Shown here: positions 2,573-38,543 of the stretch, in pieces
Numbering within the stretch: the first letter of the stretch is position 1
How the letters are laid out: the number at the start of each line of letters is the position of its first letter
DNA from: an uncultured bacterium
GTDB taxonomy: Bacteria; Joyebacterota; Joyebacteria; Joyebacterales; Joyebacteraceae
Length of the DNA stretch: 57,857 nucleotides
NCBI GenBank assembly: GCA_964399265.1
Contig: CAYNQF010000004.1
Span: forward strand, 1 to 57,857
Reading direction: 5' to 3'
Notes under the pieces: model-generated
The model's input: only the letters and a program-made list of their open reading frames with translations
Told to the model about the DNA's origin: nothing
The model's database searches: none
Made by a program: the position numbers and the translations under genes

Positions 2573-3804
2573 GCGCCTCGTGGCACAGATCGCATCTCGT
2601 CAACGTCTGCGTGGCGGTCGCCTCGACCGCCGTCGCCTACCTGGTCATGGAATTCGCCGTCTTACCGGCAGTGCTGCCGCACGTTCCGCTTGATAGACAG
2701 ATAGACATCCACGCCGGCATTCGGGCTCTGACGCAGAGTTCCAAGTCCGGCACTCTGCCACATGACTACGTGGCGCTCGTCGGCGACTCCTACGCACAGG
2801 GCTCGGGTGACTGGTTCCGGTCGGTCGACCACGGGCGAAACCCGCCGTACAACGTGACGCACCTCATCTACGAGAGAGAAGGCCGCGACTCGATCACGTT
2901 CGGCGCGAGCGGGGCAGGCAGCCTGCGCGGCCTCGTCACCGAGCCGCTGTCCCAGTACGAGTTCATGAAGGCCACGGGCCGGTTTCGCATCGGCCAGCCG
3001 GACGTGACCGTGGTCTACTTCTACGAGGGAAACGACCTCGACAACAACGTGCTTGATCTGGAGACCAGGTACGATGGGCCCTGGCGTTCTCCCGGCCGGG
3101 CGCCGGACCCGGTGGCCTTCGGCGCGTTCATGCGGGACAAGGTTCTGGGAGAGGACTCGCTCTTCGGGCAGGCGGAGGCGTTCAGGTGGTATGATAATGC
3201 CTTCGTCGCCGACTTCATCTACCGGACGATCAAACGGTCTGCGAGGTACTGGCTCCGCGGGCGAGAAGCCTACGAGTTTCCGCTGCCGGTCTTGCGCGAC
3301 GGCCCGAACAACCGCGCCGTGGTCGGCGGTGCGGTCGTGGCCATCCCGGAGGAACTCCAGGGCCCGGCGCTCGAGCTGAACGGAGACGAGATTGGGCTGG
3401 GCGTAGATGTGTTCGAGCGGGCGCTCGTCTTTCTACGCGACTGGTTCGCGGACTCGAGAGTCTGCGTCGTCTACATCCCCTCGCCGCTCTCGTGCTACGA
3501 GCCGGGGTCGCCGACCGTGAGCTGTCAGTCCTACCACGACCGTGAGTCGGTTCACCCCTCGTCGCTCGTCTGGGAGAGGAGCGACGAGATCGCGGGCATG
3601 GTGCGCGAGGTCGCGGAGCGGGCGGGCTGCCCGTTCGCGGACGCCCGTCCGGCCCTGAGGCGAGAGGCGGCGCGCGAGTTCATTCACGGCCCCTTGGACT
3701 GGCGGCACTTCAACAGGAACGGCCTGGAGACACTCGCTACCACGGTCATCGCGCTCGTCGACTCGGTAGGCGAGGCCGGACCGAGAGACGTGTGCGATGA
3801 GTGA
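2569..3804 (+). CDS. Membrane-anchored SGNH/GDSL hydrolase-family protein (possible polysaccharide O-acyl-modifying enzyme)
   Basis: N-terminal TM helix, block I GDSY, block III EGND, block V DWRH. ATG at 2569 overlaps the ispDF stop; the track's 1126 start is an artefact. Confidence 0.75.
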   Translation: MSASWHRSHLVNVCVAVASTAVAYLVMEFAVLPAVLPHVPLDRQIDIHAGIRALTQSSKSGTLPHDYVALVGDSYAQGSGDWFRSVDHGRNPPYNVTHLIYEREGRDSITFGASGAGSLRGLVTEPLSQYEFMKATGRFRIGQPDVTVVYFYEGNDLDNNVLDLETRYDGPWRSPGRAPDPVAFGAFMRDKVLGEDSLFGQAEAFRWYDNAFVADFIYRTIKRSARYWLRGREAYEFPLPVLRDGPNNRAVVGGAVVAIPEELQGPALELNGDEIGLGVDVFERALVFLRDWFADSRVCVVYIPSPLSCYEPGSPTVSCQSYHDRESVHPSSLVWERSDEIAGMVREVAERAGCPFADARPALRREAAREFIHGPLDWRHFNRNGLETLATTVIALVDSVGEAGPRDVCDE

Positions 3805-3868
3805 CCCCGCACGGAGCAGGGATCGCGTCCCGGGCAGGTCGGCCGGTGACGAGTGAGGAGAGCACCCT

Positions 3869-6489: not shown

Positions 6490-6505
6490 TGGCACATTCG
6501 ATGCA
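6490..6505 (+). promoter_or_regulatory. sigma54 (-24/-12) promoter upstream of the EPS operon
   Basis: TGGCACATTCGATGCA = GG-N10-GC with a perfect TGGCAC; intergenic, 21 nt after the ddl stop. Confidence 0.7.
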
Positions 6506-15729: not shown

Positions 15730-17738
15730 GACGGCATCTCTGCTCAGTCGTGCTGGTCGCAGTCGTCGTTACGGCGTTGTTCGCGCAGGCTCAAGCGTAC
15801 CAGGTCGTGAGCGGACACCCCCGCCTCTTCTTCCGCGCGGGCGACCTGTCGGCGCTCCGGTCCAAGGCGACCGGGTCGCTCCTCGGCGACTACAACAAGA
15901 TGAAGTCGTATTGCGACGAGCACATGGGGGATTCCCTGCCCGTGTCTTCGACCGAGCTGGAGTGGCAGCTTCCGGCGTACAGCTTCGTGTGGCTCATGGG
16001 TCAGAACACCAACTACGCCGCCAGGGCAAAGGCCATCGCGCAGGCCGCCGTCTCATCCGGCTCGACCGGTTCGGAAGGCTGGATCAGGGGAGGCTCGCTC
16101 TTCTTCGACTGGTGCTACGACTACCTCACGCCCTCGGAGAGGCAGATGTTCGGGCTGGCGCTCGCCTCGGGGGGCAGCTCGTATCTCTCGAGCGAGAACT
16201 GGCCGAACATATCCTGTTTCCACGGCACGTTCTCACGGCTGCGCACCCTCATCTACCCGGGCCTTGCCATCTACGGGGAGGGCATCGACGACGCGGCCGC
16301 GCGGGGACTCTGCGACACCTATCACGACAACACCTACGGAGCCAACCGCGTCCTGTGCTGCATGGACGAGCTTGGCTACGACGGGTCCTGGTTCGAGGGT
16401 GACTACAACTTCAACGGCTACCTGTACCAGAGCGAGGGCTTCGAGCTGTGGGCCACCGCGACCGACGAGAACCCATACGACGTCTCGACCAACTATCACA
16501 ATCTGGCGACCTACTACATCTACGAGATGGGTCCGAGCAAGGGCACCTCGGGGATGCTCGGGTCGAAGCAGGGCGACTCGTTCAGACACTCCGCCCCGAC
16601 GCTGGCGTTCCGTCTCACGATGCTCAGGATCGCGTCGCGCTACCGTGACGGCCGCGCGCAGTGGCTCGCACAGGAGATCGTCGACCAGGACCTCGGGTAT
16701 GTGAACACGTACGACCGCTGGAAGCTCATAGTGTGGACCGACCAGTCGGTCGCCCCGACGCCGCCGACCGACCTGCCCGAGTCGTGGTACTTCAAGGGCG
16801 TCGGCACGGCTTACATGAGGTCGGGATTCAACCTCGATCCCACGAGCACCGATGTATACGCCGTGTTCCGATGCGAGAGGTTTCCCGACATGCACACGCA
16901 TGCTCACCAGAACCACCTCCTGATCGGGCGCGGGAGCGACATCCTGGCCGTCGACTCGGGCGCCTACGATTCCTCCTCCTCGAGCCATCACGACAACTAC
17001 TTCTCGAGAACGGTAGCCCACAACACGATCACGGTCTTCGATCCGAACGAGGCGACGTTCGGCAGCTATTCGAACGACGGCGGACAGAGGCGTCCGTCGC
17101 ACGAGAGCTATCCGACGCAATGCGGTGACCTCGATCTTCCGCAGTTCGACAGGGGCACGATCGTGGCGTTCGAGGACGCGGACAACTTCACCTACATGAA
17201 GGGAGACGCCACCGCGGCCTACTCGCCCGAGAAGGTGAGCCAGTTCACGAGGGAGGTCGTCTATCTCAAGCCCGACCTGTTCGTCGTGCTCGACCGCGTT
17301 ACCGCCACCTCCGCGTCGTTCAAGAAGCGCTGGCTGCTCCACTCGATCAACGAGCCGCAGGTCTCAGGGAACACCACCGTCGTCCAGCAGGGCGACTCGA
17401 AGCTATTCATCAAGACGCTGCTTCCGACGCCCTTCGAGATCGTGAAGGTCGGGGGGTCCGGACATCAGTTCGAGGTCAACGGCGTGAACTACCCGCCCTC
17501 GGGGGACGTGCCTAGCGACGCGGGCGCGTGGAGGATCGAGGTGTCGCCGAGCACGTCGAGCGCGGAGAACCTCTTCCTTCACGTTCTCTACGTGGCCGGG
17601 GCGAGCGTCACGTCGATGCCGGACGTGTCGCTCGTGGAGTCCGACGAGGTCGTCGGGGCCGAGATCGACGGGCATGTCGTGCTGTTCAGCAGGTCCGGCA
17701 TAGCGGTCGACTCCACCACGTACGAGTACGGGGAGTAG
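15726..17738 (+). CDS. Secreted heparinase II/III-like polysaccharide lyase
   Basis: Signal peptide, HPRLFF start, HTHAHQN, LAVDSGAY, RTVAHNTITV, DATAAYS..FTREVVYL, AWRIEVSP; resembles heparinase II-type alpha-toroid/beta-sandwich lyases. Confidence 0.78.
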   Translation: MRRHLCSVVLVAVVVTALFAQAQAYQVVSGHPRLFFRAGDLSALRSKATGSLLGDYNKMKSYCDEHMGDSLPVSSTELEWQLPAYSFVWLMGQNTNYAARAKAIAQAAVSSGSTGSEGWIRGGSLFFDWCYDYLTPSERQMFGLALASGGSSYLSSENWPNISCFHGTFSRLRTLIYPGLAIYGEGIDDAAARGLCDTYHDNTYGANRVLCCMDELGYDGSWFEGDYNFNGYLYQSEGFELWATATDENPYDVSTNYHNLATYYIYEMGPSKGTSGMLGSKQGDSFRHSAPTLAFRLTMLRIASRYRDGRAQWLAQEIVDQDLGYVNTYDRWKLIVWTDQSVAPTPPTDLPESWYFKGVGTAYMRSGFNLDPTSTDVYAVFRCERFPDMHTHAHQNHLLIGRGSDILAVDSGAYDSSSSSHHDNYFSRTVAHNTITVFDPNEATFGSYSNDGGQRRPSHESYPTQCGDLDLPQFDRGTIVAFEDADNFTYMKGDATAAYSPEKVSQFTREVVYLKPDLFVVLDRVTATSASFKKRWLLHSINEPQVSGNTTVVQQGDSKLFIKTLLPTPFEIVKVGGSGHQFEVNGVNYPPSGDVPSDAGAWRIEVSPSTSSAENLFLHVLYVAGASVTSMPDVSLVESDEVVGAEIDGHVVLFSRSGIAVDSTTYEYGE

Positions 17739-24960: not shown

Positions 24961-26801
24961 GGATACTCCTTCTGACACAGTACTTCCCGCCCGAGACGGG
25001 CGCGGCACCCGCGAGGGCACGCCACTTCGCGGCGAACCTCGCGAGGCTGGGACACGACGTCACGGTCGTGACCGGCATGCCGAACCATCCGAGCGGGGTC
25101 AAGCACCCCGCATACAGGAGGTGTCTCTGGCGCCGTGAGAACGACGGCCCGGTGCGCATCGTGCGCTGCGCTCTCTACGCTTCCCCGCGCAAGACGTTCG
25201 CGACGAGGATGCTGAACCAGCTGAGCTTCGCGCTCACCTCGGTGTTCGGAGGGCTCCGCGCGGGGCCGTGCGACATCATACTGGTCAGCTCGCCTCCGCT
25301 CTTTCTGGGCGCGTCGGCGTGGCTGCTTGGCCTCGTGAAAGCCGCGCCCTTCGTTCTCGACCTCAGAGACTACTGGCCGCAGGCGGCGGTTGCGCTCGGA
25401 CAGCTGAACAGCAGGACGGCCGTGAAGCTGGCCACGGGGCTAGAGGAGTTCCTCTACAGGCGCACCGGCAGGATGGTGGCCGTCACGCCGGGGATGCGCA
25501 GGCTCATGCTCGAGCGCGGCATCCCCGCGCACAGGGTTGAGCTGGTTACCAACGGCGCCGACCTCGACCGCTTCCGTCCGGCCGGGGCCGGCGCAGCCGA
25601 CGGCGAAGAGTTCACGGTGCTCTACAGCGGCACCCATGGCCTGGTCCACGGTATGGGGGTCATACTCGACGCTGCGGAATCGCTCCGCGACGACGAGAGG
25701 ATCAGGTTCCTGCTCGTCGGGGATGGGGTCGCCAAGGACGATCTCGTCGCGGACGCCGAGCGGCGGGGACTCCGCAACGTCGAGTTCACACCCAGCGTGC
25801 CGCCCGAGGACCTCTCCGACATCATAGGCGGCGCGGACGTGTGTGTCGCCACCACGACCGCCGGCGCGTTCAGCGAGGGGACGATCCCCGTGAAGCTGTT
25901 CGATTACATGGCGTGCGGGCGGCCCGTCGTGGCCGCGGTGAACGGCGACGGCAGGCGGCTCATCGATGAGTCTGGCGCGGGGATCGTCGTCGAGCCGGGT
26001 GACGCCGAGGGACTCGCTCGGGCCATCCGCTCTCTCGCGGACGACAAGGCCGCCCGCGAGGCAATGGGTGCGAGCGGGGCGAGGTTCGTGGCCGAGAACT
26101 ACTCCAGGGAGCGACTGGCCGAGAGGCTCGCTGAGATCCTCGAGAACGTGGTGTCGCTCGAGCGGTCCGTCGACGTCGATGGGAGGAGGTTCAGGCGCTA
26201 CCTCGCGCTCAAGTACACGCTCGACGCCTCGTTCGCGCTCTTCTTTCTCGTCGCCACGCTGCCGGTCTCGGCCATCCTCGCTCTTCTCGTTCGGCTCGAT
26301 TCGCCGGGGCACGCGGTCTTCAGACAGCGCCGCATCGGCGTGCACTCGCACGAGTTCATGATCGCGAAGTTCAGGACGATGGACCGAGGAACGCCCGATC
26401 TCGCGACCGACATAATGGTGGACCAGCCGCGGAGCTACACGACGAGGATGGGGCGGTTCCTGAGGCGCACCAGTCTCGACGAGCTGCCGAACTTCTGGAA
26501 CATCCTGCGCGGCGAGATGAGCATAGTGGGCCCACGGCCGGCGCTCTTCAACCAGGACGAGCTGATAGAGCGGCGCAGGCTCCTGGGCGTCGACGTGATG
26601 AGACCCGGGCTCACCGGATGGGCCCAGATCAACGGGCGTGACTCCGTCACGCTCGACGAGAAGGTCAGGCTCGACGAGTTCTACGTCAGGAACTGCTCGT
26701 TCATGTTGGACCTAAGGATCATCCTGCGCACGGCGGGGGTGATGTCCAACCCGGACGACCTTCCGGTGCGTCCCGTTCGGCGGAAGGAGGAGTCCTCTTG
26801 A
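24957..26801 (+). CDS. Fusion of a WbuB-like GT4 and a C-terminal monotopic phosphoglycosyltransferase (PglC/WcaJ-like sugar transferase)
   Basis: N-terminal QYFPPE..MPNHPSG..IPVKLFDYMA; C-terminal KFRTM, SLDELP, GEMSIVGPRP, PGLTGWAQINGR. Confidence 0.88.
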
Positions 26802-27685
26802 TCTCGAACAAGAGAGACCTTCGCACTCCCGATGCTGCGGGACGCCGCATCGATCCGCGGATGATCGCCGCTGCGGTCATCCTGGTCGCGCTCATCGTGC
26901 TGGTCTACAGGCAGAGCTTCGCGATCCTGTTCAGGACATGGGAGGCGAACCCCGATTACTCCCACGGCTACCTCATTCCCCCCGTCGTCGTGTTCCTCTT
27001 CTGGAGGGAGTGGAAGAAGTTCGTGGCCGCCGTGGGGAGAGGGTCGATGTGGGGTCTCCTCCTGATCTTAGTGGCGCTCGCGGGGCACGTGCTCTCGATA
27101 CGGGCCGGCGTCTTCATGACCCAGGGCTACTCCTTCGTGCTGCTGCTCTTCGGACTTTCGCTGTTCGTTTTCGGCCGGCCGGCGACGCGCGCCATCTGGT
27201 TTCCTCTAGGCTACCTCGTGTTCATGCTGCCGATGCCGCCGTTGCTGGTGAACGTGGTCAGCTTCCAGCTCAAGGTCTTCGCGGCGAGGGCCGGAAGCGC
27301 CCTTGCGTTCAAGCTCGGGGTTCCGCTCGCGCGCTCGGGAATGACCATCCATCTCGCCGCGGGCTCGCTTCGTGTCGCCAACCCGTGCAGCGGGCTCAGG
27401 TCGCTCATCGCGCTCGTCGCGCTGGGCGCGCTCTTCGCGTACCTCTCGCACGGTCCCGTCTGGAAGCGCCTGGTGTTGTTCCTGTCAGCCGTGCCGCTGG
27501 CCGTGGCGGCCAACATCGTGAGGATCGCCGCGCTCTGCGTCGTGGCGAGCGTGTGGGGCATCGATGCCGCGCTCGGGTTCTTCCATGACTTCTCGGGCCT
27601 TCTGCTCTTCGTGATGGCGTTCCTCGGGCTGGTCGTAGTGCGCAAGCTGCTGCGCACCGACGCCAGCGGAGAGGAGGCCGCGTGA
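26798..27685 (+). CDS. xrt: Exosortase (EpsH/Xrt family)
   Basis: YSHGYLIP; catalytic Cys (NPCSGLRS), Arg (NIVRI) and His (FHDFSG) all present; multi-TM. Confidence 0.93.
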   Translation: MISNKRDLRTPDAAGRRIDPRMIAAAVILVALIVLVYRQSFAILFRTWEANPDYSHGYLIPPVVVFLFWREWKKFVAAVGRGSMWGLLLILVALAGHVLSIRAGVFMTQGYSFVLLLFGLSLFVFGRPATRAIWFPLGYLVFMLPMPPLLVNVVSFQLKVFAARAGSALAFKLGVPLARSGMTIHLAAGSLRVANPCSGLRSLIALVALGALFAYLSHGPVWKRLVLFLSAVPLAVAANIVRIAALCVVASVWGIDAALGFFHDFSGLLLFVMAFLGLVVVRKLLRTDASGEEAA

Positions 27686-28323
27686 ACGCCTACGTCAAGG
27701 TGGCGCTCGTGTCGATCCTGCTCGCGCTCACGGCGGCGTACGTGTATCTGAACCCGCCACCGGACATGGAGGTCGGTGAGGGGAGGCTTGCCTCGTTCCC
27801 GATGGTCCTCGACGGCTGGAGCGGCATGGACCTGAGCTTCGACGAGGTCGTGGTCGAGGAGCTGAACGCCGACGACATGCTGACACGGAGGTACACGCGC
27901 GGCGCCGACGAGGTCTGGTTCGTCGTGATCTTCCATCAGAACGAGAGATACGGGGCCCATGAGCCGCTGGTGTGCTACCGCTCCCAGGGATGGACGGTGA
28001 CGGATCAGGGCACCAGGACCCTGAGGAGAGAGGGCGGCGAGTTCGACGCCAACTGGGTGACCGTGGAGTCGAAGGGCCAGACCAGGCTCGCTCTCTACTG
28101 GTGGTACACGGCCGGCGACCTGGCCACCGGCGACCGCGACAAGTTCATGGCGCGGATGGCGACGTCCGGCATCGTGTCGAACGTCACGTTCGGCGCGTTC
28201 GTAAGGATCTCTACGGTGGTGAGAAACGGCGACCTGGCCGGGGCCATGGACACGGTCACCGGCTTCGCCGAGCAAGCGCTCGTCTATCTTCCCGCCCTCT
28301 TCGAGGCGGACGTGGGGGACTAG
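27682..28323 (+). CDS. epsI: EpsI family exosortase-associated protein
   Basis: FPMVLDGWSG, HEPLVCYRSQGW, YWWY; GTGA-coupled to the exosortase gene. Confidence 0.88.
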   Translation: MNAYVKVALVSILLALTAAYVYLNPPPDMEVGEGRLASFPMVLDGWSGMDLSFDEVVVEELNADDMLTRRYTRGADEVWFVVIFHQNERYGAHEPLVCYRSQGWTVTDQGTRTLRREGGEFDANWVTVESKGQTRLALYWWYTAGDLATGDRDKFMARMATSGIVSNVTFGAFVRISTVVRNGDLAGAMDTVTGFAEQALVYLPALFEADVGD

Positions 28324-28404: not shown

Positions 28405-29268
28405 ATGGGGCTCCTTAGGCAGTTCAACTCGCTGATCTGGGCCTGGAGCGAAACGTTCCGGGCGGCCGGACGCGGGGCGGCGCTCTCGCCGTTCGCGATA
28501 TACGCGGCAGTCCAATGCGCGGTCCTGTTCGCGGTGGTCGGCTTCGCCTACGCGCCGCTGTCGGTTGTGGTGGCGCCGGTGCTCAGGTGGAGGTTCGGCG
28601 ACGCCGCGCTGCACTACCCGAGCAACCTGTTCGTGCTCCGGCCGGCGCTGGCGCAGGTGGACTCTATCCTGATAGTGCTGCTCGGGTCGGTCTTGACGGC
28701 CACGGCCATACACCTGTTCGGAACCTTCTTCGCGGGCAGGAGACGCTCGCTCTCCACGAGCTGGCGCGCGGCCGGGAGCCGTTACCTTCCCGTCGTGGCG
28801 GTGGCCGCCGTCGTCATGGTGATCACGCACTTCGTGGCGAGGGCACCGTTCTCGCTCGTGAGCGGACTCGCCGAGAGTTCGCCCTCGATCTTCCGCATCG
28901 TGAGGTTCGGCGCAGTCGGCATCGTGATCGTCGTGCAGACGCTGTTCGTCTACACGGTGCCGGGCCTCGTCATATCGCGCCTTGGCCTCAAGGGTGCGGT
29001 CGGGCGCAGCTTCAGGCTCGCGGCGACGACACCTATCACGAGCCTCCTGATCGTCGGCGTGCCCGCGGCTCTGGAACTCATTCCGATGTGGCTGTCCAGG
29101 CAGAGTGCCACGCTGGCGCTGACGCTGTCTCCGGAGTTCCTCATCTGGGTGATGCTCCTCTGGGTCGCGGTGATCCTCGCGGCGGCCTACCTGACGGCGG
29201 GCGCGGCGACCCGCTTCTTCCTGTTCTCGATCCAGGACGAGGACGGCGACACCGGGGGGAGGGACTGA
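28405..29268 (+). CDS. Hypothetical integral membrane protein (about 6 TM)
   Basis: GGAGG RBS and multiple hydrophobic helices; no recognised motif. Confidence 0.7.
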   Translation: MGLLRQFNSLIWAWSETFRAAGRGAALSPFAIYAAVQCAVLFAVVGFAYAPLSVVVAPVLRWRFGDAALHYPSNLFVLRPALAQVDSILIVLLGSVLTATAIHLFGTFFAGRRRSLSTSWRAAGSRYLPVVAVAAVVMVITHFVARAPFSLVSGLAESSPSIFRIVRFGAVGIVIVVQTLFVYTVPGLVISRLGLKGAVGRSFRLAATTPITSLLIVGVPAALELIPMWLSRQSATLALTLSPEFLIWVMLLWVAVILAAAYLTAGAATRFFLFSIQDEDGDTGGRD

Positions 29269-29271
29269 GCG

Positions 29272-30822
29272 ATGACGAGGAACACTTCGATCGTGATTCG
29301 AGAGGCCTTTCCGCGCGCGCTCAGGGTCTGCATCGTGGTCGCGCTGGCGTCGGTCGTCGCGGTCTCCCTGTGGGGTTGCGGTCCGCGGGGCGGGCTGTCG
29401 GACAGGTACGTCGCCGAGAAGATGGCGTGGAGAGCGCAGAAGCTCAGGCGGGCAATGGCCGAGAACCCGGACGTCGCCACCGAGCAGATGAAGCAGCGCG
29501 TGATGTCCGCCTACGCCGAGATCGTCAGGCTGTTCCCGCCTCCCACGGGTGACGGGTCGAACATGTCCGATGTCGAAGACGACGTCGCCGTGATATCCGG
29601 CATGAGCAGGCTCAGGCTCGCGGGTCTCTACGCGGACGCGGGGGACGCCGAGGAAGCGCAGAGGCTCTACTCATCGGTGGTCGACAGCTACGCGTTCAGC
29701 AGAAGCATGGCGGTCGAGGCAGCCACCGCGCTCGCAGCCTCGTACGAGGGGTCCGGCATGGTACAGGAGGCGGCTGACGTGCTCATGCAGACCGCTGAGA
29801 ACTGGGCGCCCGCCGCGACGCGGGACGATCCGCCCGATCAGCGCATTCTGAGGGCCCCGCTGCTCGCGGCGACGAGCCTCGCGGCCGCGGGTCTTGAGGC
29901 GACGCCCGCCGCGCTCGAGGGCGCCAGGGACTACTACCGCCGGATCGGCAACGAGTGGTCCGGAACGCCCACCGGAAGGTCCGCGCTCGCCACGATCGCC
30001 GAGTCCTACGAGCTGGAGGGACGTTGGGCCGACGCGGCGGGGACGTACGAGCGGCTCGACGAGGAGTACGGTACGCCGGAGACGCGCCCGTCGCTGCTTC
30101 TCAAGCTTGGGGACCTCTACTCCGGCAGGATGGGCGACGTGCCGCGCGCCACGGAATACTACGAGGACGTGGAGCGTCTCGCCCCGGAAGGCGAGGAGGG
30201 GGCGACCGCGTCGATAGAGCTGGCGCGATTCGACCTCGCGAAGCACAGATACGAGCAGGCGCGGAGGCGTCTGCAGTCGGTGCTCGACAGGTTCGCCGAC
30301 GAGAAGACGCTCGCGGCGACGGCGTCGCAGCTCCTTGCCTCTTCCTACGAGATGGAGGGGAGGCTGGACACGGCGATCGCGCGCTACGGGCAGCTCTCGG
30401 CGGCGTATCCGACGTCGCTCTACGGCCTCGCCGCGCCGATACACGTGGCGAAGTTGTACGCGACGATGGGTGAGGACGTGGCCTCCGCCACTGCTCTCGA
30501 CAGGGCGGTGGAGCAGTACGAGCGAGTGATCCGCGACTATGCGGACACTCCGGCCGAGATGGCTGCGAGGAGCTATCTCATAGCGGCTCGGAGCGAACTC
30601 GAGGACTGGAGCGACGTGGCTCCGCTCCTTGTCGAGACGGCGCTTCGGCAGCCGCAGGCGCAGGCGTCGGCAGGCATGCTGCTCAAGGCGGGCGACATCT
30701 ACGCGACCAAGCTCGGTGACCCGGACACGGCCTCCGACGTATTCCGGAGGGTCGTGGACACGTACGGAGGAAGCCCGGCTGCAGAGGAGGCGCAGAGGCG
30801 TCTCGAGCAGCTGACCAGGTGA
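29272..30822 (+). CDS. TPR-repeat lipoprotein
   Basis: Lipobox-like SLWGC; repeated Ala/Tyr/Leu helical TPR units. Confidence 0.8.
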   Translation: MTRNTSIVIREAFPRALRVCIVVALASVVAVSLWGCGPRGGLSDRYVAEKMAWRAQKLRRAMAENPDVATEQMKQRVMSAYAEIVRLFPPPTGDGSNMSDVEDDVAVISGMSRLRLAGLYADAGDAEEAQRLYSSVVDSYAFSRSMAVEAATALAASYEGSGMVQEAADVLMQTAENWAPAATRDDPPDQRILRAPLLAATSLAAAGLEATPAALEGARDYYRRIGNEWSGTPTGRSALATIAESYELEGRWADAAGTYERLDEEYGTPETRPSLLLKLGDLYSGRMGDVPRATEYYEDVERLAPEGEEGATASIELARFDLAKHRYEQARRRLQSVLDRFADEKTLAATASQLLASSYEMEGRLDTAIARYGQLSAAYPTSLYGLAAPIHVAKLYATMGEDVASATALDRAVEQYERVIRDYADTPAEMAARSYLIAARSELEDWSDVAPLLVETALRQPQAQASAGMLLKAGDIYATKLGDPDTASDVFRRVVDTYGGSPAAEEAQRRLEQLTR

Positions 30823-31961
30823 CGTTCCGTTCGATGACGAGAGGTTCCGGTGTGAGAGAACGCGAGAGAGACACGGACTGCCGTTCGGTCAGGCGCGCCG
30901 TCCTCTGCGGCCGCATGTTGGGCGCGTGCCCGAGCATGCTCGAGGTCTTCTTGCTCATGGAGCGAGCGGCCGAGTGTGACGCCGGGGTCGTCATAGTCGG
31001 AGAGTGCGGGACCGGGCGTGAGCTGGCCGCCCGCACCATACACGAACGGAGCGCGCGCCGGGGCGGCCCGTTCGTGTCGATCGACGCGGAGGCGTTCGAG
31101 CCCGAGCGATTGGAGCTGGAGCTTCTAGGTAGGAGCGGGACGGCGTCCCCGCACGGCGGGGGAGCGCTTCTGCAGGCGGACGGCGGCTCACTGCTTCTTG
31201 GAGGTCTCGGGCGGACCACGCCGGGCTTCCAGGAGAGGCTGCTCGCATACCTGCGGTCCGGCTGCTTCCAGCGATCGGTCGGCGGCGGTCACGTCGACGC
31301 CGACGTCCGCGTGATGGCGACGTCGGAGCGCAGCCTCGAGGCGGACGTCGAGTCCGGGTGTCTCAGAAGCGACCTGTTCTACGCGCTTGCCGTCCTCACG
31401 ATTGGCCTTCCTCCTCTGCGCGAGCGAAGAGGTGACGTGCCGCATCTCGCTCTCCACATCCTTCGCGACCTCGCGGGTGACGGGGCCTCCGGCATCGAAG
31501 GCTTCACGAGAGGGGCAGTGTCGGCGATGGTGTCGTACGACTGGCCGGGCAACGTTAGCGAGATGGAGAACCGCATTCGGAGGGCCGCCATAGTCGCCGA
31601 GGGCGGGAGGATAGCCGAGGCCGATCTCGGTCTCGACGTCCCCGACGAGCGCTCCGAGACGACGCTCAGAGAAGCACTCGACCGGCTCACGAAGGAGATG
31701 GTCGAGGACTCGCTGCGAAGGACGCTCGGCAACGTATCCAGGGCCGCGCGCTCGATAGGAGTGAGCCGACCCGCGATGTACGACATGATACGTAAGCACG
31801 ACATCGATGTTCGGCGCTTCAAGCACGAGCGGACGGCCCGCCGCCGTCGCTCGCCGGATACGCAGCCCTCCGCGGGGCAGCGGGCCGGCTCAACAGGGGG
31901 GTCGCTTGACACCCCAGCCCCCATGGACCTAAAATCCGGTCGAACCGACGCGCAGGAGTAG
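30819..31961 (+). CDS. Degenerate sigma54 enhancer-binding protein (PrsR-like AAA+ / Fis-HTH), no receiver domain, ATPase motifs substituted
   Basis: GECGTGRE, QADGGSLLLGG, RSDLFYAL, WPGNVSEMEN; HTH GNVSRAARSIGVSRPAMYDMI. Confidence 0.85.
   Translation: MTFRSMTRGSGVRERERDTDCRSVRRAVLCGRMLGACPSMLEVFLLMERAAECDAGVVIVGECGTGRELAARTIHERSARRGGPFVSIDAEAFEPERLELELLGRSGTASPHGGGALLQADGGSLLLGGLGRTTPGFQERLLAYLRSGCFQRSVGGGHVDADVRVMATSERSLEADVESGCLRSDLFYALAVLTIGLPPLRERRGDVPHLALHILRDLAGDGASGIEGFTRGAVSAMVSYDWPGNVSEMENRIRRAAIVAEGGRIAEADLGLDVPDERSETTLREALDRLTKEMVEDSLRRTLGNVSRAARSIGVSRPAMYDMIRKHDIDVRRFKHERTARRRRSPDTQPSAGQRAGSTGGSLDTPAPMDLKSGRTDAQE
31906..31935 (+). promoter_or_regulatory. Candidate sigma70 promoter for the PEGA/lipoprotein pair
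   Basis: TTGACA-N18-TAAAAT inside the low-complexity 3' tail of the preceding ORF. Confidence 0.5.
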
Positions 31962-31997
31962 TGGCTCGTTCCAACGCAACACCGTAAGGAGCCTCGC

Positions 31998-32744
31998 ATG
32001 GCATCGAGAACGTTAGGTCTGCTAGTCTGCGTCGCCGCCGTGGCGGGACTGCTCCCGCTGGCCGCGCTGGCGCAGGGCCAGGGCGTTGTGGTCGACTCCG
32101 CTCCTCCGGGGGCGGTGGTCGAACTGATAGGTCAGACGGTCTACAGAGGCGTGACGCCCTGGAAGCTCGACAGGGGGATCTCCGGCGCCTACGAGGTGCG
32201 CGCGTACAAGGCGGGGTACGATGAGTGGGACGGGTACGTGCTCCTCTCGGCGGCGAGGAAGGATTCGCTCTTCATCCGTCTGTCCAGAAAGACTCCCCTG
32301 GGGGCCGGTCTCCGCTCGGCCATCGTGCCCGGTTGGGGTCAGTACTACACGGGTCAGAAGGCGAAGGGCACGCTGTTCCTGGCGGCGGAACTCGGCGCAC
32401 TTGCCGGCGTCCTGTGGACGAACGAGAAGAGGGACGACGCCCAGAGCGACTACACCGCGGCCAGGCTCGAGTACCTCGCGGCGGATCAGGTCGACGAGAT
32501 CGAGAGCAAGTACCTGGCTATGAAGAGCGCCTTCAACGAGCTGGACCGCTGGCACGAGAAACGCAAGCAGTGGAGCTATGCGGCGGCTGCGATCTGGCTG
32601 GCCAACGTGCTGGACGCCACGATCCTCTTCCCGGCGCCGTCGCAGGGAGCGGGCTATTCGTCCCTGCCGCCCGGCGAAGAGTCGGGGTTTTTCGCTTCCA
32701 TCGAGCCCGACCGGACAGCGGCGGGTCTCGTCATCCGGTTCTAG
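31998..32744 (+). CDS. Secreted PEGA-domain / DUF5683-like protein
   Basis: Signal peptide, VDSAPPGAVV..GVTP (PEGA), LRSAIVPGWGQYY (DUF5683-like), terminal aromatic residue (IRF). Confidence 0.75.
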   Translation: MASRTLGLLVCVAAVAGLLPLAALAQGQGVVVDSAPPGAVVELIGQTVYRGVTPWKLDRGISGAYEVRAYKAGYDEWDGYVLLSAARKDSLFIRLSRKTPLGAGLRSAIVPGWGQYYTGQKAKGTLFLAAELGALAGVLWTNEKRDDAQSDYTAARLEYLAADQVDEIESKYLAMKSAFNELDRWHEKRKQWSYAAAAIWLANVLDATILFPAPSQGAGYSSLPPGEESGFFASIEPDRTAAGLVIRF

Positions 32745-32768: not shown

Positions 32769-34385
32769 ATGACACGGAATCGAGCACTGATACTGCTGGC
32801 GGCCGCGATCATGCTGACGGCGCTGTCCGGATGTTTCGACACGCTGTCGCAGCCGGACAGGGACAACGCGGCCGACCCGCTCAATCCGGACACCTCGTCG
32901 CGCGTTCCGCCCAGACCGACGGCGCTCGGTGCCGTCGTGTCGGATAGGAACGTCGTGCTGACATGGTACGTCAGCGACACGTCGAGGGTCGACCACTACA
33001 ACGTGTACCGCTGGGAGGTGGAGGACGCGAACAAGGAAGACTACGAACTCCTGGATACGGCCGACTCGATGACCTTTGAGGACGAGGGCGTCCGCAACGG
33101 TCAGGAGTACCGATACAAGGTGTCCTGCGTGAACGGCCTGAGCCTCGAGGGGAAGCTCTCGACGGCTAGGAGCGTGGTCCCGCGTCCGTTCAGCGTGGCG
33201 ATCGAGCAGGGACGCCCTAAGACTGGGTCGAGGAGCGTCACTCTTACCCTGGCCGCTTCGGGCGCCGCGGCGCTAATGCAGGTCTCCAACGAGAGCGACC
33301 TCTCTTCGGCCCCGTGGTTCACGTTCCAGACCTCGTACTCATGGCAGCTCACGGCGGGCGATGGAGAAAAGACCGTCTACGCGAGGTTCAGAGACTCCGA
33401 GGACAACGAGTCGGACATCGTTAGTGACTCGATCGAACTGGACACGCGGGCCGTCATCCTGTCCCTGACGGAGGACACAGGCGGCGCCGTCCGGTACGCC
33501 GGCGACGTGATCCACTTCTCGCTCGACTCTGGCGAGACCGACGGGGTCGCGACGGTCAGCGTCGGCAACGCCGCCACCGGCATCACGCTGTACGACGACG
33601 GGACCGAAGGCGACGAGGTTGCGGACGACGGCGTGTACGAACGCGACTACGTCGTGGAGTACGGGGTGGAGGTCGTCGACGCGCTCGTAATCGGCGATTT
33701 CACCGACGAGGTTGGTAACGACGCCGACCCGCTGCAGGCCAATGGAACGGTCACGATCTACGAGCCGCCGGTTCCCGTCACGATGAACGTCCCGGTCGTG
33801 CTCTCCGAGCGTAGGATGGCTCTCTCCTGGTCGAGGAGCACCGACGCGGACTTCGATGCGTACGAGCTGTACAGGTCCTACGTGCCGGGCGTGGACACAT
33901 CATCCGACAGGGAACTCATCGCGAACATCCAGTCGGTGTCGCAGACCAACTACACGGACTCCGCGCTCGACCCGGACTCGACGTACTACTATGCGGTTTA
34001 CGTGGTGGACGATGTGGGTCTCCGTGAGATCAGCAACGAGGTGTCCGGAACCACGCTGGCGAACACGCCGCCGGAGCCCGTCGAGCTGTACGCTCCGTGG
34101 GCGCCCGATTCGACCTCTCTCATGATTAGCTGGTCGGAGAGCGACGCCGAGGACTTCCGCCAGTACGAGCTCGTGGGGTGGGAGCAGGATCCGCCGAACC
34201 CGCCGGACAGTGCCGGCAAGCATGTTCTTGCCCGGTTCAGCTCGCCGGGGGAGACGTTCTACACGCACTCGTCGCTGCTGGATACGCTCGTCTACTGGTA
34301 TCAGGTGGCGGTCAAGGATTCCTTCGGAGCGGTCGCCCTGTCGGACAGCGTCTCCGGCACGCCGAGGACGGCAGCACGCCGCTAG
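32769..34385 (+). CDS. Fibronectin type III lipoprotein with a choice-of-anchor X-like acidic motif
   Basis: Lipobox ALSGC, DRDNAADP, several FN3 units (W..YNVYR..YKV), LYDDGTEGDEVADDGVY. Confidence 0.78.
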   Translation: MTRNRALILLAAAIMLTALSGCFDTLSQPDRDNAADPLNPDTSSRVPPRPTALGAVVSDRNVVLTWYVSDTSRVDHYNVYRWEVEDANKEDYELLDTADSMTFEDEGVRNGQEYRYKVSCVNGLSLEGKLSTARSVVPRPFSVAIEQGRPKTGSRSVTLTLAASGAAALMQVSNESDLSSAPWFTFQTSYSWQLTAGDGEKTVYARFRDSEDNESDIVSDSIELDTRAVILSLTEDTGGAVRYAGDVIHFSLDSGETDGVATVSVGNAATGITLYDDGTEGDEVADDGVYERDYVVEYGVEVVDALVIGDFTDEVGNDADPLQANGTVTIYEPPVPVTMNVPVVLSERRMALSWSRSTDADFDAYELYRSYVPGVDTSSDRELIANIQSVSQTNYTDSALDPDSTYYYAVYVVDDVGLREISNEVSGTTLANTPPEPVELYAPWAPDSTSLMISWSESDAEDFRQYELVGWEQDPPNPPDSAGKHVLARFSSPGETFYTHSSLLDTLVYWYQVAVKDSFGAVALSDSVSGTPRTAARR

Positions 34386-34458: not shown

Positions 34459-34580
34459 TGCCCCTCCTTTAGCCCCCGGCGGGGTCCCGATCCGGCCCCC
34501 GGGTCTCTCGCCACACTCCCTGTCCGGCCCCCGGAAACTCCCTTGCAGGACCCCTCTTGCTGTCCTTGTTACTTTCTAAC

Positions 34581-34596
34581 TGGCATAGATTGTGCA
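34581..34596 (+). promoter_or_regulatory. sigma54 (-24/-12) promoter
   Basis: TGGCATAGATTGTGCA = GG-N10-GC, preceded by an AT-rich tract. Confidence 0.7.
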
Positions 34597-34647
34597 TTCT
34601 AGCGAGTACGGCTCCAGCCACGAGACTACATCGGAGCCCTCGTAACA

Positions 34648-34784
34648 GGGATTCGCGGGGACCGGCGGGCTATAAAGAAGCCTCGGTCATTCTGGGTCGG
34701 AAGCATTCCCCCACGCACGCCGGCCCAGCGGTCTTCCACCGCAAGGCAACCCCCTACGCACCGGCCTCCGGCCCCGCGGATCCC
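34648..34784 (+). other. Predicted multibranch RNA structure in the 5' leader (unassigned)
   Basis: GGGATTCGCGGGG (34648-34660) pairs with CCCCGCGGATCCC (34772-34784) and encloses three hairpins. Confidence 0.5.
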
Positions 34785-34816
34785 GATGACTCCCAAGTCT
34801 CCCGAAAGGTGGCCGG

Positions 34817-37393
34817 ATGCCTGATCGAGCAGCACGAGCGGGTCTTCGAGCGGCGGCCGCCTCGACAGCGGCCGTCGTCTTCGTGCTGCTGTGCGCGGCG
34901 CCGTCATGGTGCGCCGCGGGCGACCGCGCCACCACCGAACACGTCCTGATCGGGCTCACACCGAACGCCGGGTTCGAGGTGAGCGTTAACGGGCAGCCGC
35001 TCGAGGGCGGACCGGTCGTGACCAGCGAACTCGGCATTGCCTCCTTTGGCGTCGACGAGGGCGCGTTCTCCGAGGGAACGAGATACGTGGTCATCGGCGA
35101 CCCGGGCGACCTCATGATATCGAACGTGTTCGTCGACGGCGTCACGGCCGCGGGGGCAACGGTGCACTGGACCACCAACCTGCCGTCCAACTCCGGAGTG
35201 ACATACGGTCCGACGACGGATTACGGCTCCGAAGCGGGCCCCGACCCGGCGCTCGCGATGACCCACGTCGTCGCGCTGTCCGGTCTGACTCCGGGGACCA
35301 CCTATCATTACATGGTTACGAGCGACGACGGTCAGGGGCACGCCGCCTCGTCGGGCGACGGCGTGTTCGCCACCTCTCAGGTTCCACTGGCCATCGAGAA
35401 CGTGTCGGTCGACAGTGTCGGTCAGATGTGGGCGGCGGTCAGCTGGACCACGAATCGCCCCTCCAACTCCGTGGTGGAGTACGGTCTCACGGCGGAGTAC
35501 GGAGACTCGACCGAGGTCGATCCTGCTCTCGTCGAGACGCACAGTGTTGTCGTAGACGGCCTCTCTCCGGGCACCGTCTATCACATGAGGGTTCGTTCGT
35601 CCGACGGCGGGATACCGCCTGCGGTCTCCGGCGACGCCGAGTTCTCGACGGCTCTCGCGCCGCTGTCGCTGACCGGCGTCGAGGTAGCGGAGACGGGTGA
35701 CACGTGGGCCGTGATCCGCTGGACCACCGATCGCGCCGCCGACTCGCGCGTCGAGTACGGACTTTCCATTCAGTACGGGGACTCGTCCGCGACCGACCCT
35801 CGGCTGGTAACCGCCCACGAGATAACACTCTCGGACCTCGAGCCCGGGGTCGGCTACCACTTCCGGGCGTGGAGCGACGATGGGTCCGCCGCACCGGCGG
35901 CGTCGGACGACCAGGAGTTCTCCACGATCGTCAACGAACTCGAGATGTCGGGCCTCACCGTGGGGCCCATAGGGCAGACCTGGGCGGTCGTGAGCTGGTC
36001 CACGAACCGGCCCGCTGCGACATACGTGGCGTATGGGGAGAGCGATGCCTACGGTCAGTTTGCCAGCCCCGGTGATGGCTTCGCCACCGAGCACTCGGCG
36101 ACGCTCGCGGGACTTGCACAGGGGACGCTCTATCACTTCAGGGCGGTCTCGTTCGACCAGGACCTGCAGAGCGTTTCGTCTCCGGACTCGACCCTCGTGA
36201 CGATGCAGGGCGACGTGACCGGTCCACCCCAAATGGAGGGCGTGGACCTGGACGCCGTCTCTGCCACGTCTGTGGTCGTGACCTGGACGACCGACAGGCC
36301 CGCGACGTCGCAGGTCGTGTACGGGACCGATGGCGTGTTCGACTGCGAGACCCGTGCCGACACGACGCTCGTCACGGAGCACAGCGTCATCGTGTGGCCG
36401 GTGGTCCCCAGGCTCGAATACTCATTCGTGGCGCTGAGCGCCTGCGGATGCGACACGACCTCCTGCAGTCCGCTGGTCTTCTCGACGTCGCCTCCGGCCG
36501 CCGCAAGTCTCACGGTCAAGCCGCTCGACCTCATCAAGATCATAGTGACGCCCAACGACGACTCGTCGGCCTTGATCATCTGGGCAAGCGACAGGCCTTG
36601 CTCGACCTGGGTCGACTACGGCGAGGCTCAGGACTACGGAGAGAGCGCTCCGGGGATGCCTCTCGGCAACGCCGCGTACCAGGCCGAGCTCCCGGACCTC
36701 GAGCCGGGAGCGCGCTACCACATCCGTGTGAGCGGCTGGGACGCGCCGGGGGGAGAGGTCACCGGCGAGGACATCCTCTTCGAGATGGTCGAGCCTCCGG
36801 ATCACCAGGCGCCGGCGCGCCCGACGGGTGTCGCCTGCTCGCTCAGCGAGGCCGGGGTCGAGGTGCGATGGGATTCGAACACGGAGTCCGACCTTGCGGG
36901 GTACAACGTCTACAGAGCGCGGAGCAGGCCGGGGTGGATCGACTGGTCGAGAGCGGTGATGCTGAATTCCACGCCGGTTACCGAGTCGAGATACGTGGAC
37001 TCGTCCATCGAACAGGGCGCGGCCTACGCCTACGCGGTGACCGCCGTCGACGGGTCCGACAACGAGAGCCTTTGGTCTGAGAACGCCACGATCGAGACGA
37101 GTCCGGTCGAGCCCGGTCTGTTCCGTCTCGCTGCATACCCCAACCCCGTCCGCGACGACGCCAACTTCGCGTTCGCGCTGCCGGCGGGTGTCTCGTCGGC
37201 GCGACTCCGGGTGCTGTCGCTCAGCGGACGCGTCGTGATGGACACCGAGGTCGCCTACAGGTCCTCGGGTGAGCAGTCTCTCACGTGGGACGCCCGCGAC
37301 CCGTCGGGCTGGCCCGTCGGCGACGGCGTCTACCTCTGCGAGCTGCGCGCGGGCGGGTCGGTCGCCCGCACGAAGCTCACCGTCCTTCGCTAG
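34817..37393 (+). CDS. Secreted FN3-array protein with a C-terminal T9SS type A / FlgD-like sorting domain
   Basis: Signal peptide; six ~90-aa FN3 repeats (W(T/S)T(N/D)RP...YG...H...L.PG..YH) plus one classical FN3; C-terminal YPNP..LSGRVV..TWDARD..GVYL..TKLTVLR. Confidence 0.85.
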   Translation: MPDRAARAGLRAAAASTAAVVFVLLCAAPSWCAAGDRATTEHVLIGLTPNAGFEVSVNGQPLEGGPVVTSELGIASFGVDEGAFSEGTRYVVIGDPGDLMISNVFVDGVTAAGATVHWTTNLPSNSGVTYGPTTDYGSEAGPDPALAMTHVVALSGLTPGTTYHYMVTSDDGQGHAASSGDGVFATSQVPLAIENVSVDSVGQMWAAVSWTTNRPSNSVVEYGLTAEYGDSTEVDPALVETHSVVVDGLSPGTVYHMRVRSSDGGIPPAVSGDAEFSTALAPLSLTGVEVAETGDTWAVIRWTTDRAADSRVEYGLSIQYGDSSATDPRLVTAHEITLSDLEPGVGYHFRAWSDDGSAAPAASDDQEFSTIVNELEMSGLTVGPIGQTWAVVSWSTNRPAATYVAYGESDAYGQFASPGDGFATEHSATLAGLAQGTLYHFRAVSFDQDLQSVSSPDSTLVTMQGDVTGPPQMEGVDLDAVSATSVVVTWTTDRPATSQVVYGTDGVFDCETRADTTLVTEHSVIVWPVVPRLEYSFVALSACGCDTTSCSPLVFSTSPPAAASLTVKPLDLIKIIVTPNDDSSALIIWASDRPCSTWVDYGEAQDYGESAPGMPLGNAAYQAELPDLEPGARYHIRVSGWDAPGGEVTGEDILFEMVEPPDHQAPARPTGVACSLSEAGVEVRWDSNTESDLAGYNVYRARSRPGWIDWSRAVMLNSTPVTESRYVDSSIEQGAAYAYAVTAVDGSDNESLWSENATIETSPVEPGLFRLAAYPNPVRDDANFAFALPAGVSSARLRVLSLSGRVVMDTEVAYRSSGEQSLTWDARDPSGWPVGDGVYLCELRAGGSVARTKLTVLR

Positions 37394-38514: not shown

Positions 38515-38543
38515 TTGTCAAGGGGAGTGGGAGATGGTACCAT
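38515..38543 (+). promoter_or_regulatory. Candidate sigma70 promoter of PEP-CTERM gene 2
   Basis: TTGTCA-N17-TACCAT with TGn extended -10. Confidence 0.55.

Follow-up and report, generated by a model that had tools for sequence, protein, structure and literature searches.

Bacterial enhancer-binding proteins (bEBPs) that lack the GAFTGA motif and act independently of sigma54 form a recognized class, comprising TyrR, DhaR, HupR, PhhR, HsfA, NtrX, the NtrC proteins of Rhodobacter and Caulobacter, and VpsR (PMC6158489, PMC3162934, bioRxiv 10.1101/2023.06.06.543975). Francke et al. found about 110 deviant homologues among roughly 5000 (PMC3162934). VpsR, which lacks GAFTGA and has ND in its Walker B motif, shows no detectable ATPase activity and activates exopolysaccharide (EPS) genes with sigma70 (PMC6158489). 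In Proteobacteria, PEP-CTERM genes are the predicted targets of sigma54 and PrsR and carry sigma54 promoters (PMC1569441); one PEP-CTERM gene was shown to be RpoN dependent (PMC9850573). Here we describe a degenerate PrsR-type bEBP encoded within an exosortase/EPS locus on contig CAYNQF010000004.1 of an uncultured bacterium (assembly GCA_964399265.1). The whole stretch of 57,857 nucleotides (nt) that was analyzed is referred to as the window, and the bEBP encoded at positions 30852 to 31961 as the window protein. We propose, with a probability of roughly 0.6, that the window protein is a PrsR orthologue turned into an ATP-hydrolysis-dead, sigma54-blind DNA-binding regulator, which acts independently of sigma54 in its locus.

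Judged by analogy, the closest functional counterpart of the window protein is VpsR of Vibrio cholerae, which likewise has no GAFTGA, a non-consensus Walker B motif, and a retained helix-turn-helix (HTH) domain, controls exopolysaccharide genes, and was among the matches in searches of the Protein Data Bank (7v2b). In contrast to the window protein, VpsR keeps its receiver domain and responds to cyclic di-GMP (c-di-GMP), for which the window protein offers no arguable site; VpsR is neither orthologous to PrsR nor associated with an exosortase. NtrX of Brucella, Caulobacter, and Sinorhizobium is also GAFTGA-less and sigma54 independent, has a shortened L1 loop, and was a top full-length structural match, but it retains a receiver, the kinase NtrY, and ATP binding (it was crystallized with ATP/ADP), whereas the window protein has neither receiver nor kinase left, and no Walker B motif. 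TyrR, PhhR, DhaR, HupR, and NtrC of Rhodobacter or Caulobacter share the absence of a functional GAFTGA and activate or repress sigma70 promoters. They have other sensory domains, however, and none is known from PEP-CTERM/exosortase loci; ATP binding or hydrolysis is still required by several of them, and Walker A and Walker B mutants of Caulobacter NtrC are nonfunctional. FleQ of Pseudomonas aeruginosa, a bEBP-family protein whose AAA+ domain superposes closely on that of the window protein, represses and activates EPS (pel/psl) promoters without ATP hydrolysis, but retains GAFTGA and ATPase activity and also activates sigma54 flagellar promoters. In FleQ, the residues for c-di-GMP are R144, R185/N186, and those of an ExxxR motif, none of which seems recognizably specific in the window protein. 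A c-di-GMP site of the FleQ type appears unsupported there: bEBPs in general share the Arg following Walker A, and Thr, Ala, or Val stands in place of the FleQ-specific Asn. Since GAFTGA-less, sigma54-independent bEBP homologues are already recognized, and ATPase-negative EPS regulators of this kind are known from VpsR, the suggestion in an earlier note on this DNA of a possibly undescribed regulatory mode was overstated as a claim about a class.

The open reading frame (ORF) at 30819 to 31961 on the forward strand is intact and spans 380 amino acids (aa) counted from its first GTG, in agreement with the earlier note. Both the gene caller and the alignment of all orthologues point to the GTG at 30852, a few bases downstream of a GAGAGG stretch, as the likely start, yielding a protein of 369 aa (MRERER...). 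Its parts are as follows (all on the forward strand).

30852 to 31961, forward: degenerate PrsR-type bEBP gene, 369 aa (gene call, orthologue alignment)
30852 to 30914, forward: receiver-domain remnant of ~21 residues (alignment with orthologues)
30918 to 31403, forward: AAA+ (Sigma54_activat) core in which every catalytic and sigma54-contact motif is altered (Pfam, alignments)
30999 to 31022, forward: Walker A, GECGTGRE, Lys to Arg
31128 to 31160, forward: L1 loop GRSGTASPHGG, shorter and unrelated, in place of GAFTGA (gaps against ZraR and NifA)
31191 to 31205, forward: Walker B, LLLGG, DE to GG
31317 to 31328, forward: sensor I, ATSE where relatives have AATN, Asn to Glu
31362 to 31388, forward: arginine-finger region LRSDLFYAL, second Arg to Ala
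31419 to 31661, forward: AAA+ lid domain carrying sensor II WPGNVSE (Pfam, alignments)
31542 to 31562, forward: sensor II, WPGNVSE, Arg to Ser
31692 to 31796, forward: Fis-type HTH (HTH_8) (Pfam, alignments)
31758 to 31796, forward: HTH recognition helix GVSRPAMYDMIRK
31797 to 31958, forward: C-terminal tail, basic, with low model confidence

Motifs were called from residue-by-residue alignments to ZraR (1ojl) and NifA and to relatives. Mutagenesis of PspF and NtrC has defined six motif classes needed for activation. Our alignments bore out every change that the earlier note had listed, namely the Lys-to-Arg exchange in Walker A, the absence of GAFTGA, DE to GG in Walker B, the loss of the second Arg in the arginine-finger region, and the Arg-to-Ser exchange in sensor II, and revealed the replacement of the sensor I Asn as a further one. 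The lack of a receiver domain was confirmed as well, only ~21 residues being located N-terminal of the AAA+ domain. The window protein therefore deviates from functional bEBPs in GAFTGA, Walker A and B, the sensor I Asn, the arginine fingers, and the sensor II Arg, while it has what defines an atypical bEBP at the sequence level, a bEBP-like AAA+ domain without functional GAFTGA and a retained DNA-binding domain. Because all five tested motifs were intact in 192 of 232 scored relatives, these losses go beyond chance. By the known mechanism, the window protein is predicted to be incapable of both sigma54 contact and ATP hydrolysis. That it might still work as a sigma54 activator through noncanonical residues is scarcely credible: bEBP homology and the presence of sigma54 promoters nearby speak for it, but all six required motif classes are changed, the replacing residues vary freely within the clade of orthologues described below, and in GAFTGA single F/T changes are enough to abolish activation (PMC3162934).

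The fold, as the earlier note had supposed, is retained. Pfam detected Sigma54_activat (PF00158, 9e-30), AAA_lid_14 (PF25601, 2e-18), and HTH_8 (2e-5, above its cut-off) in the window protein, so that the AAA+ and lid domains of a functional bEBP are both present. An AlphaFold2 (AF2) model reached a mean predicted local distance difference test (pLDDT) score of 88.2, and 282 of its 369 residues scored ≥90; values exceeded 90 over the AAA+ core, lid, and HTH, and weak ones were confined to the linker and the two ends (N-terminal stub and C-terminal tail). Foldseek aligned the AAA+ domain with those of NtrC1, ZraR, PspF, FleQ, and FlrC at template-modeling (TM) scores of 0.85 to 0.90 (target normalized) and root mean square deviations of 2 to 3 Å, and GAFTGA-less NtrX (5m7n/o/p) was among the top full-length matches. 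The HTH is complete, again in line with the earlier note, and its recognition helix hardly differs from that of canonical PrsR. An FK pair just after the HTH is invariant across the clade, and a tail motif, LDTPxPxDLxSGRxxAQE, is common to the window protein and its closest orthologue.

The same losses recurred in orthologues. Relatives, all of them metagenome derived, were gathered by profile searches of 1.84 billion representatives and of 90% clusters, followed by motif tables. The searches and tables together define a clade of ~32 clusters at 90% identity with the HTH signature GNVSRAAR(S/A)IGVSRPTMYDLIRK, sampled by 14 representatives at 50% identity, and the closest relatives of the window protein (63, 60, 56, 45, 45, and 41% identity) show the same motif losses. 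Both GAFTGA and the sensor II Arg are absent from 32 of 32 clusters, and the Walker B DE from 31 of 32, replaced by GG, DG, EG, EH, HS, PG, KD, ES, ED, RD, AN, or PD. The Walker A residue is Lys in 22 clusters and Arg in 10, with Arg scattered over several lineages. The glycine frame of the P loop, GE.GTG[K/R], is retained in 29 of 32 clusters, which suggests that a phosphate-bearing ligand may still be bound. In a neighbor-joining tree computed without the motif columns, which carries no support values, the 14 representatives were monophyletic and the receiver-truncated proteins formed a subclade.

A second metagenome contig (L109), 99.96% identical to the window with one mismatch over 2334 bases and covering the whole gene, argues against an assembly artifact; it is too close to provide an unsaturated dN/dS. 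No contig is on record as encoding the window protein itself, and among the matches listed from a profile search of genome contigs with the clade alignment there were only generic bEBPs (≤40% identity) and no orthologue. GAFTGA-less proteins also occurred outside the clade: about 37 of the 232 scored relatives lack GAFTGA, and many of these keep Walker B and sensor II intact (PrsR-like proteins without GAFTGA include P0013, P0146, P0151, P0161, P0172, P0174, P0179, P0190, P0193, P0196, P0202, P0219, P0222, P0225, and P0245, among others). GAFTGA thus appears from these alignments to have been lost many separate times among PrsR-like response regulators.

To compare constraint between domains, we used the mean frequency of the top residue per column in the clade and in 94 canonical PrsR-like relatives. 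Conservation was relaxed in the AAA+ core (0.57 in the clade versus 0.78 in canonical proteins), equal in the lid (0.64 in both), and tighter in the HTH (0.75 versus 0.64). Positions near-invariant in canonical proteins but freed in the clade comprise the helix and loop around GAFTGA; D, E, and I of Walker B; in the L2 region, the VK..R..Q helix together with the Arg; and, in sensors I and II, the Asn and the Arg, respectively. By this measure, the DNA-binding domain is estimated to be the most constrained part of the window protein. Nei-Gojobori comparison with the two closest orthologues gave pN of 0.22 to 0.27, pS of 0.58 to 0.62, and dN/dS of ~0.24 to 0.25, which are rough values since dS is saturated; neighboring genes in the same genome comparison had dN/dS of 0.11 to 0.22.

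These data also bear on whether the gene could be a decaying relic, a functionless pseudogene in the making that is open by chance. It is the fastest-evolving gene of the cluster (60% aa identity to its orthologue in locus L001, versus 68 to 80% for neighbors), its GC content at third codon positions is slightly lower (0.81 versus 0.85 to 0.92), and the receiver has been progressively truncated. However, the frame is intact in about 32 diverged clusters and pN lies far below pS, the HTH and the P-loop frame are conserved, the former more tightly than in canonical PrsR proteins, the confidence of the AF2 model is high, and the degeneracy is older than the split of lineages only 41 to 45% identical, all of which makes a relic highly improbable. 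The gene is under purifying selection and seems instead to encode a repurposed regulator. For its claim of repurposing rather than decay, the earlier note had named as checks that orthologues share the substitutions and that dN/dS is below 1, and both were found (dN/dS of ~0.25); neither intact orthologues nor neutral decay of this copy was observed.

The relatedness to PrsR that the earlier note had assumed was supported by the NCBIfam models, the best of which was TIGR02915 (PrsR, the PEP-CTERM-box response regulator). The window protein scored 231 bits, below the equivalog cut-off of 502.6, and a full-length clade member (P0401) scored 378 bits, also below it. The genes next to the bEBP gene are arranged as follows.

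26798 to 27685, forward: exosortase EpsH
27682 to 28323, forward: EpsI
28405 to 29268, forward: polytopic membrane protein of unknown family, present between the EpsI and tetratricopeptide repeat (TPR) genes in every orthologous locus
29272 to 30822, forward: TPR protein, directly upstream of the bEBP gene, in the position of PrsT beside PrsK/PrsR
31998 to 32744, forward: PEGA/DUF5683 protein
32769 to 34385, forward: fn3 protein
34817 to 37393: fn3/FlgD_ig protein, 858 aa

The gene order GT4 glycosyltransferase, priming glycosyltransferase, EpsH, EpsI, membrane protein, TPR protein, bEBP, PEGA/DUF5683 protein, fn3 protein recurred in every locus that was long enough (L001, L002/L003, L086, L088, L121/L133, L135, L150, and L151). 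In L151, a 703-aa PrsK gene (TIGR02916, 338 bits versus a cut-off of 300) lies between the TPR and bEBP genes, and TIGR02915 is the best model of the adjacent bEBP (378 bits). tblastn placed PrsK at the same position in L135 and L089 and found none in the window, L001, L002, L085, L086, L088, L121/L133, or L150; Pfam scans of the window likewise detected no histidine kinase. The TPR protein of the window reached none of the PrsT models, its best NCBIfam match being a YbgF-like TPR model below the cut-off.

The state of the receiver followed the presence of the kinase. The receiver residues DD, D, T, and K are intact in 12 clade members, including those from all three checked loci with PrsK, and among the loci checked for PrsK only the bEBPs of L151, L135, and L089 retain them. 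Another 11 members have a full-length receiver with degenerate catalytic residues (the acidic pocket reads ER[DG], Thr is lost, Lys is changed to Arg, Gly, or Met, and in some the phospho-acceptor Asp is changed to Glu or Ala), and 9 members, including the window protein, have only a receiver stub of 21 to 90 residues (47 to 90 in the orthologues). Compared with PrsR/PrsK/PrsT systems, the window protein thus has the same best model, a nearly identical Fis-type recognition helix, and the orthologous place beside a TPR gene in a PEP-CTERM/exosortase EPS locus, and basal clade members directly follow a bona fide PrsK gene. Unlike PrsR, it scores below the TIGR02915 cut-off and has no receiver with a phospho-acceptor Asp, no PrsK nearby, no GAFTGA, and no hydrolysis residues, and, unlike in PrsR systems, the PEP-CTERM genes of the window have sigma70 rather than sigma54 promoters. 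Since TIGR02915 is the best model, synteny is shared, and PrsK is adjacent to basal members, we infer that Candidatus Eisenbacteria have their PrsR orthologue in this clade. Because the presence of PrsK matches the receiver state across the clade, the order of losses can be reconstructed as well: the AAA+ domain would have died first, while kinase and receiver were still present, followed by loss of the kinase gene and then by decay and truncation of the receiver, with Walker A Lys changing to Arg several times.

The assignment to Candidatus Eisenbacteria agrees with GltX encoded in the window, which is 72% identical to proteins of metagenome-assembled genomes (MAGs) bearing that name, and with a 52%-identical bEBP orthologue (P0389) in the NCBI MAG GCA_043815815.1 (Candidatus Eisenbacteria), annotated as 'sigma 54-interacting transcriptional regulator'.

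The strict gene order with TPR and membrane-protein genes in all loci, together with the lost signaling input (PrsK and receiver), could also be read as a nontranscriptional, architectural role, in which the window protein would partner the TPR and membrane proteins, for instance by scaffolding the exosortase/EPS machinery, and would bind DNA only incidentally. We regard this as very unlikely, as the HTH is the best-conserved part of the protein, tighter than in canonical PrsR, and ordinary PrsK/PrsR systems typically have a syntenic TPR gene as well.

The EPS/exosortase locus extends over ~36 kb (6766 to about 42683) and is flanked on either side by housekeeping genes. It encodes Wza, Wzc, sugar-modifying enzymes, many GT4s, a priming glycosyltransferase, EpsH, EpsI, the membrane protein, the TPR protein, and the bEBP; 3' of the bEBP gene follow the PEGA/DUF5683 protein, two fn3 proteins, two PEP-CTERM proteins, and more. 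The membrane protein at 28405 to 29268 comprises 287 aa with ~6 to 7 hydrophobic segments, matches no Pfam or NCBIfam family, and may be an undescribed component of the exosortase system. The protein encoded at 34817 to 37393 consists of fn3/purple-acid-phosphatase-N repeats and ends in a FlgD_ig/type IX secretion system (T9SS) type A sorting domain (TIGR04183, 24.8 bits versus a cut-off of 23). As this T9SS-type domain sits inside an exosortase (PEP-CTERM) locus, one locus contains two different sorting signals. Outside the locus, the longest ORF at 1126 to 3804 (892 aa) has no Pfam match and overlaps ispDF in another frame, and no gene was assigned to 2572 to 3857, between ispDF and gltX.

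The promoters of the locus were compared with those of orthologous loci, with the following elements in the window.

6490 to 6505, forward: sigma54-type promoter TGGCACATTCGATGCA, ~260 nt ahead of wza, the first gene of the EPS locus
34567 to 34596, forward: TGTTAC box plus sigma54-type -24/-12 promoter TGGCATAGATTGTGCA, ahead of the fn3/FlgD_ig gene, with a core invariant in six lineages
34581 to 34596, forward: the sigma54-type -24/-12 element alone
42874 to 42859, reverse: sigma54-type promoter TGGTACGCATCTTGCA, ahead of an oxidoreductase/acetyltransferase operon, recurring in L002
37502 to 37530, forward: sigma70 consensus promoter TTGACG-N17-TATAAT, ahead of the PEP-CTERM gene at 37601

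The three sigma54 promoters that the earlier note had reported are present; all are intergenic and each faces a gene. For two of them, other lineages have a conserved counterpart at the orthologous position, although the count itself (4 sigma54-type matches versus 1.5 expected) is not significant. Because of this conservation, sigma54 very probably works in the locus, presumably driven by an activator encoded elsewhere; no intact bEBP is encoded in the 57.9-kb window. In an alignment of the 160 nt upstream of the fn3/FlgD_ig promoter from six lineages, only the core promoter and a TGT(T/A)AC box (34567 to 34572 in the window) were conserved, and the remaining upstream sequence could not be aligned. 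The box precedes the -24 element by 8 to 9 nt and does not vary among the window, L150, L002, L133, L135, and L151. Of the PrsR box predicted by Haft, the part available for comparison was its TTTACA end (PMC1569441), to which the TGT(T/A)AC box can be likened as a lead only. A search for a canonical PrsR box in 41 canonical PrsR metagenome loci yielded 3 sigma54-like sites, 2 of them inside genes, from which no motif could be derived. Matches to TGGCACGAGAAnCGCA inside the PEGA gene were rejected as promoters, as they represent a conserved coding motif (RWHEKRK).

An anti-activator or repressor of these sigma54 promoters, bound to ancestral PrsR sites or the TGT(T/A)AC box or coassembled with an intact bEBP encoded elsewhere, would make use of several of these features: the conserved intergenic promoters, the conserved box in six lineages, a recognition helix nearly identical to the canonical PrsR helix GVSRPTMYDLI[KR]K, the lack of an intact bEBP in the window, and an AAA+ fold that could still join a ring. 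We nevertheless consider it a tentative and rather unlikely alternative. The box is present at only one of the three sigma54 promoters, a partner bEBP is not known, and the arginine-finger and sensor II residues that aid nucleotide-dependent ring assembly are lost; moreover, the PEP-CTERM genes, the classical PrsR targets, now have sigma70 promoters, and known GAFTGA-less bEBPs act on sigma70 promoters. A stronger version, which is more doubtful still, would make the entire clade a dedicated natural 'dead-ring' antagonist of sigma54 transcription. With PrsR DNA specificity and AAA+ fold kept, such a protein would be placed at or near conserved sigma54 promoters (e.g., at the TGT(T/A)AC box, about -38) and, through occlusion or the formation of mixed oligomers that are inactive, gate an activator that is intact and encoded elsewhere. 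If true, this would be a naturally evolved dominant-negative bEBP, and the stepwise loss of kinase and receiver would be a readable path from activator to anti-activator. The earlier note had favored related ideas. Its case for selective loss and repurposing held, whereas repression and hexamer poisoning were not supported by the computations, and for the proposed occupancy of enhancers no conserved enhancer-like site was found except the TGT(T/A)AC box abutting one sigma54 promoter.

Sigma70-type promoters, by contrast, were associated with the PEP-CTERM genes, the second of which (38604) is preceded by a weaker element, TTGTCA-N17-TACCAT (38515 to 38543), and a CTTGACA-N17-TAnAAT promoter precedes the PEGA gene in seven other loci. 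A switch of the targets to sigma70 alongside a sigma54-blind PrsR would be coherent.

The PEGA promoter is accompanied by a terminator-like hairpin in L001 (9431 to 9571), L002 (9898 to 10012), L086, L088, L089, L150, and L151. In the window (31962 to 31997) and its closest relative L085, both hairpin and PEGA sigma70 promoter are lost, the PEGA gene starts 37 nt after the bEBP gene, and PEGA-fn3 is consequently fused to the bEBP operon. In the basal, PrsK-containing locus L151, the sequence ahead of a PEP-CTERM gene (15840 to 15900; GTTACATGT-TG-TGGCACAGTGACACA) resembles a decayed TGTTAC-box/sigma54 promoter which has lost the GC of its -12 element, followed by sigma70-like hexamers, and may be a relic of a sigma54-to-sigma70 promoter switch.

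A conserved noncoding leader occupies the region between the sigma54-type promoter and the fn3/FlgD_ig gene (34597 to 34816, core about 34650 to 34800), with orthologues in L150 (13898 to 14123), L002 (12841 to 13066), L133 (from 8072), L135 (from 7151), and L151 (14091 to 14380). The blocks AGAAGCCTCGGTC, GGTCTTCCAC, and GGCAACCCCCTAYGCACC are invariant in six lineages with proteins only 45 to 60% identical. RNAalifold predicted a closed multistem fold with 9 compensatory pairs (single-sequence z-score of -2.4), and no Rfam family matched the leader, which is a candidate for a new structured RNA or riboswitch-like leader.

In the explanation that we favor, a sigma54-independent regulator derived from PrsR, the window protein would form dimers or higher oligomers that bind DNA via the HTH, and its inert AAA+ domain would provide a scaffold for oligomerization or for holding a ligand, possibly a bound but unhydrolyzed nucleotide. 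It would regulate sigma70 promoters of the locus, for example those of the PEP-CTERM genes and, in relatives, of the PEGA-fn3 operon, without ATP turnover and, in the lineage of the window, also without phosphorylation input. Either activation or repression would be compatible with such a protein, whose mode of action would, by analogy, be that of the atypical bEBPs VpsR, NtrX, TyrR, and HupR.

Several observations weigh against this explanation. Sigma54-type promoters persist in the locus, one of them invariant in six lineages. No binding site was found: no motif is common to the promoter regions of the locus, and no palindromic operator or upstream activating sequence (half-sites of 5 to 7 nt, spacers of ≤14) was common to at least 3 of five sigma54 promoter regions. 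The putative nucleotide binding is deduced from P-loop conservation alone. The fast evolution and lower GC content of the gene, the saturated dS, and the lack of support values in the tree count on the same side.

In the literature searched, a PrsR-derived clade with graded loss of PrsK and receiver seems to be undescribed, as does its apparent restriction to sediment metagenomes of Candidatus Eisenbacteria, as far as named sources go. Its members carry automatic names such as 'sigma 54-interacting transcriptional regulator' or 'NtrC family response regulator'. On sequence grounds neither job appears possible, and regulon predictions for Eisenbacteria EPS/exosortase loci that build on these names would therefore be wrong. 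The clade offers a natural series. It starts with members whose AAA+ domain is dead but whose PrsK and receiver are intact, continues with those that have a degenerate receiver and no kinase and then with those in which the receiver is truncated, and ends with the Lys-to-Arg exchange in Walker A; this would represent the order in which a sigma54 activator was dismantled while its DNA-binding function was kept. The series coincides with PEP-CTERM genes that bear sigma70 instead of sigma54 promoters and should be useful for asking what an inert AAA+ domain still gives to a transcription factor. It would also provide a first handle on the regulation of biofilm-matrix genes in an uncultured phylum.

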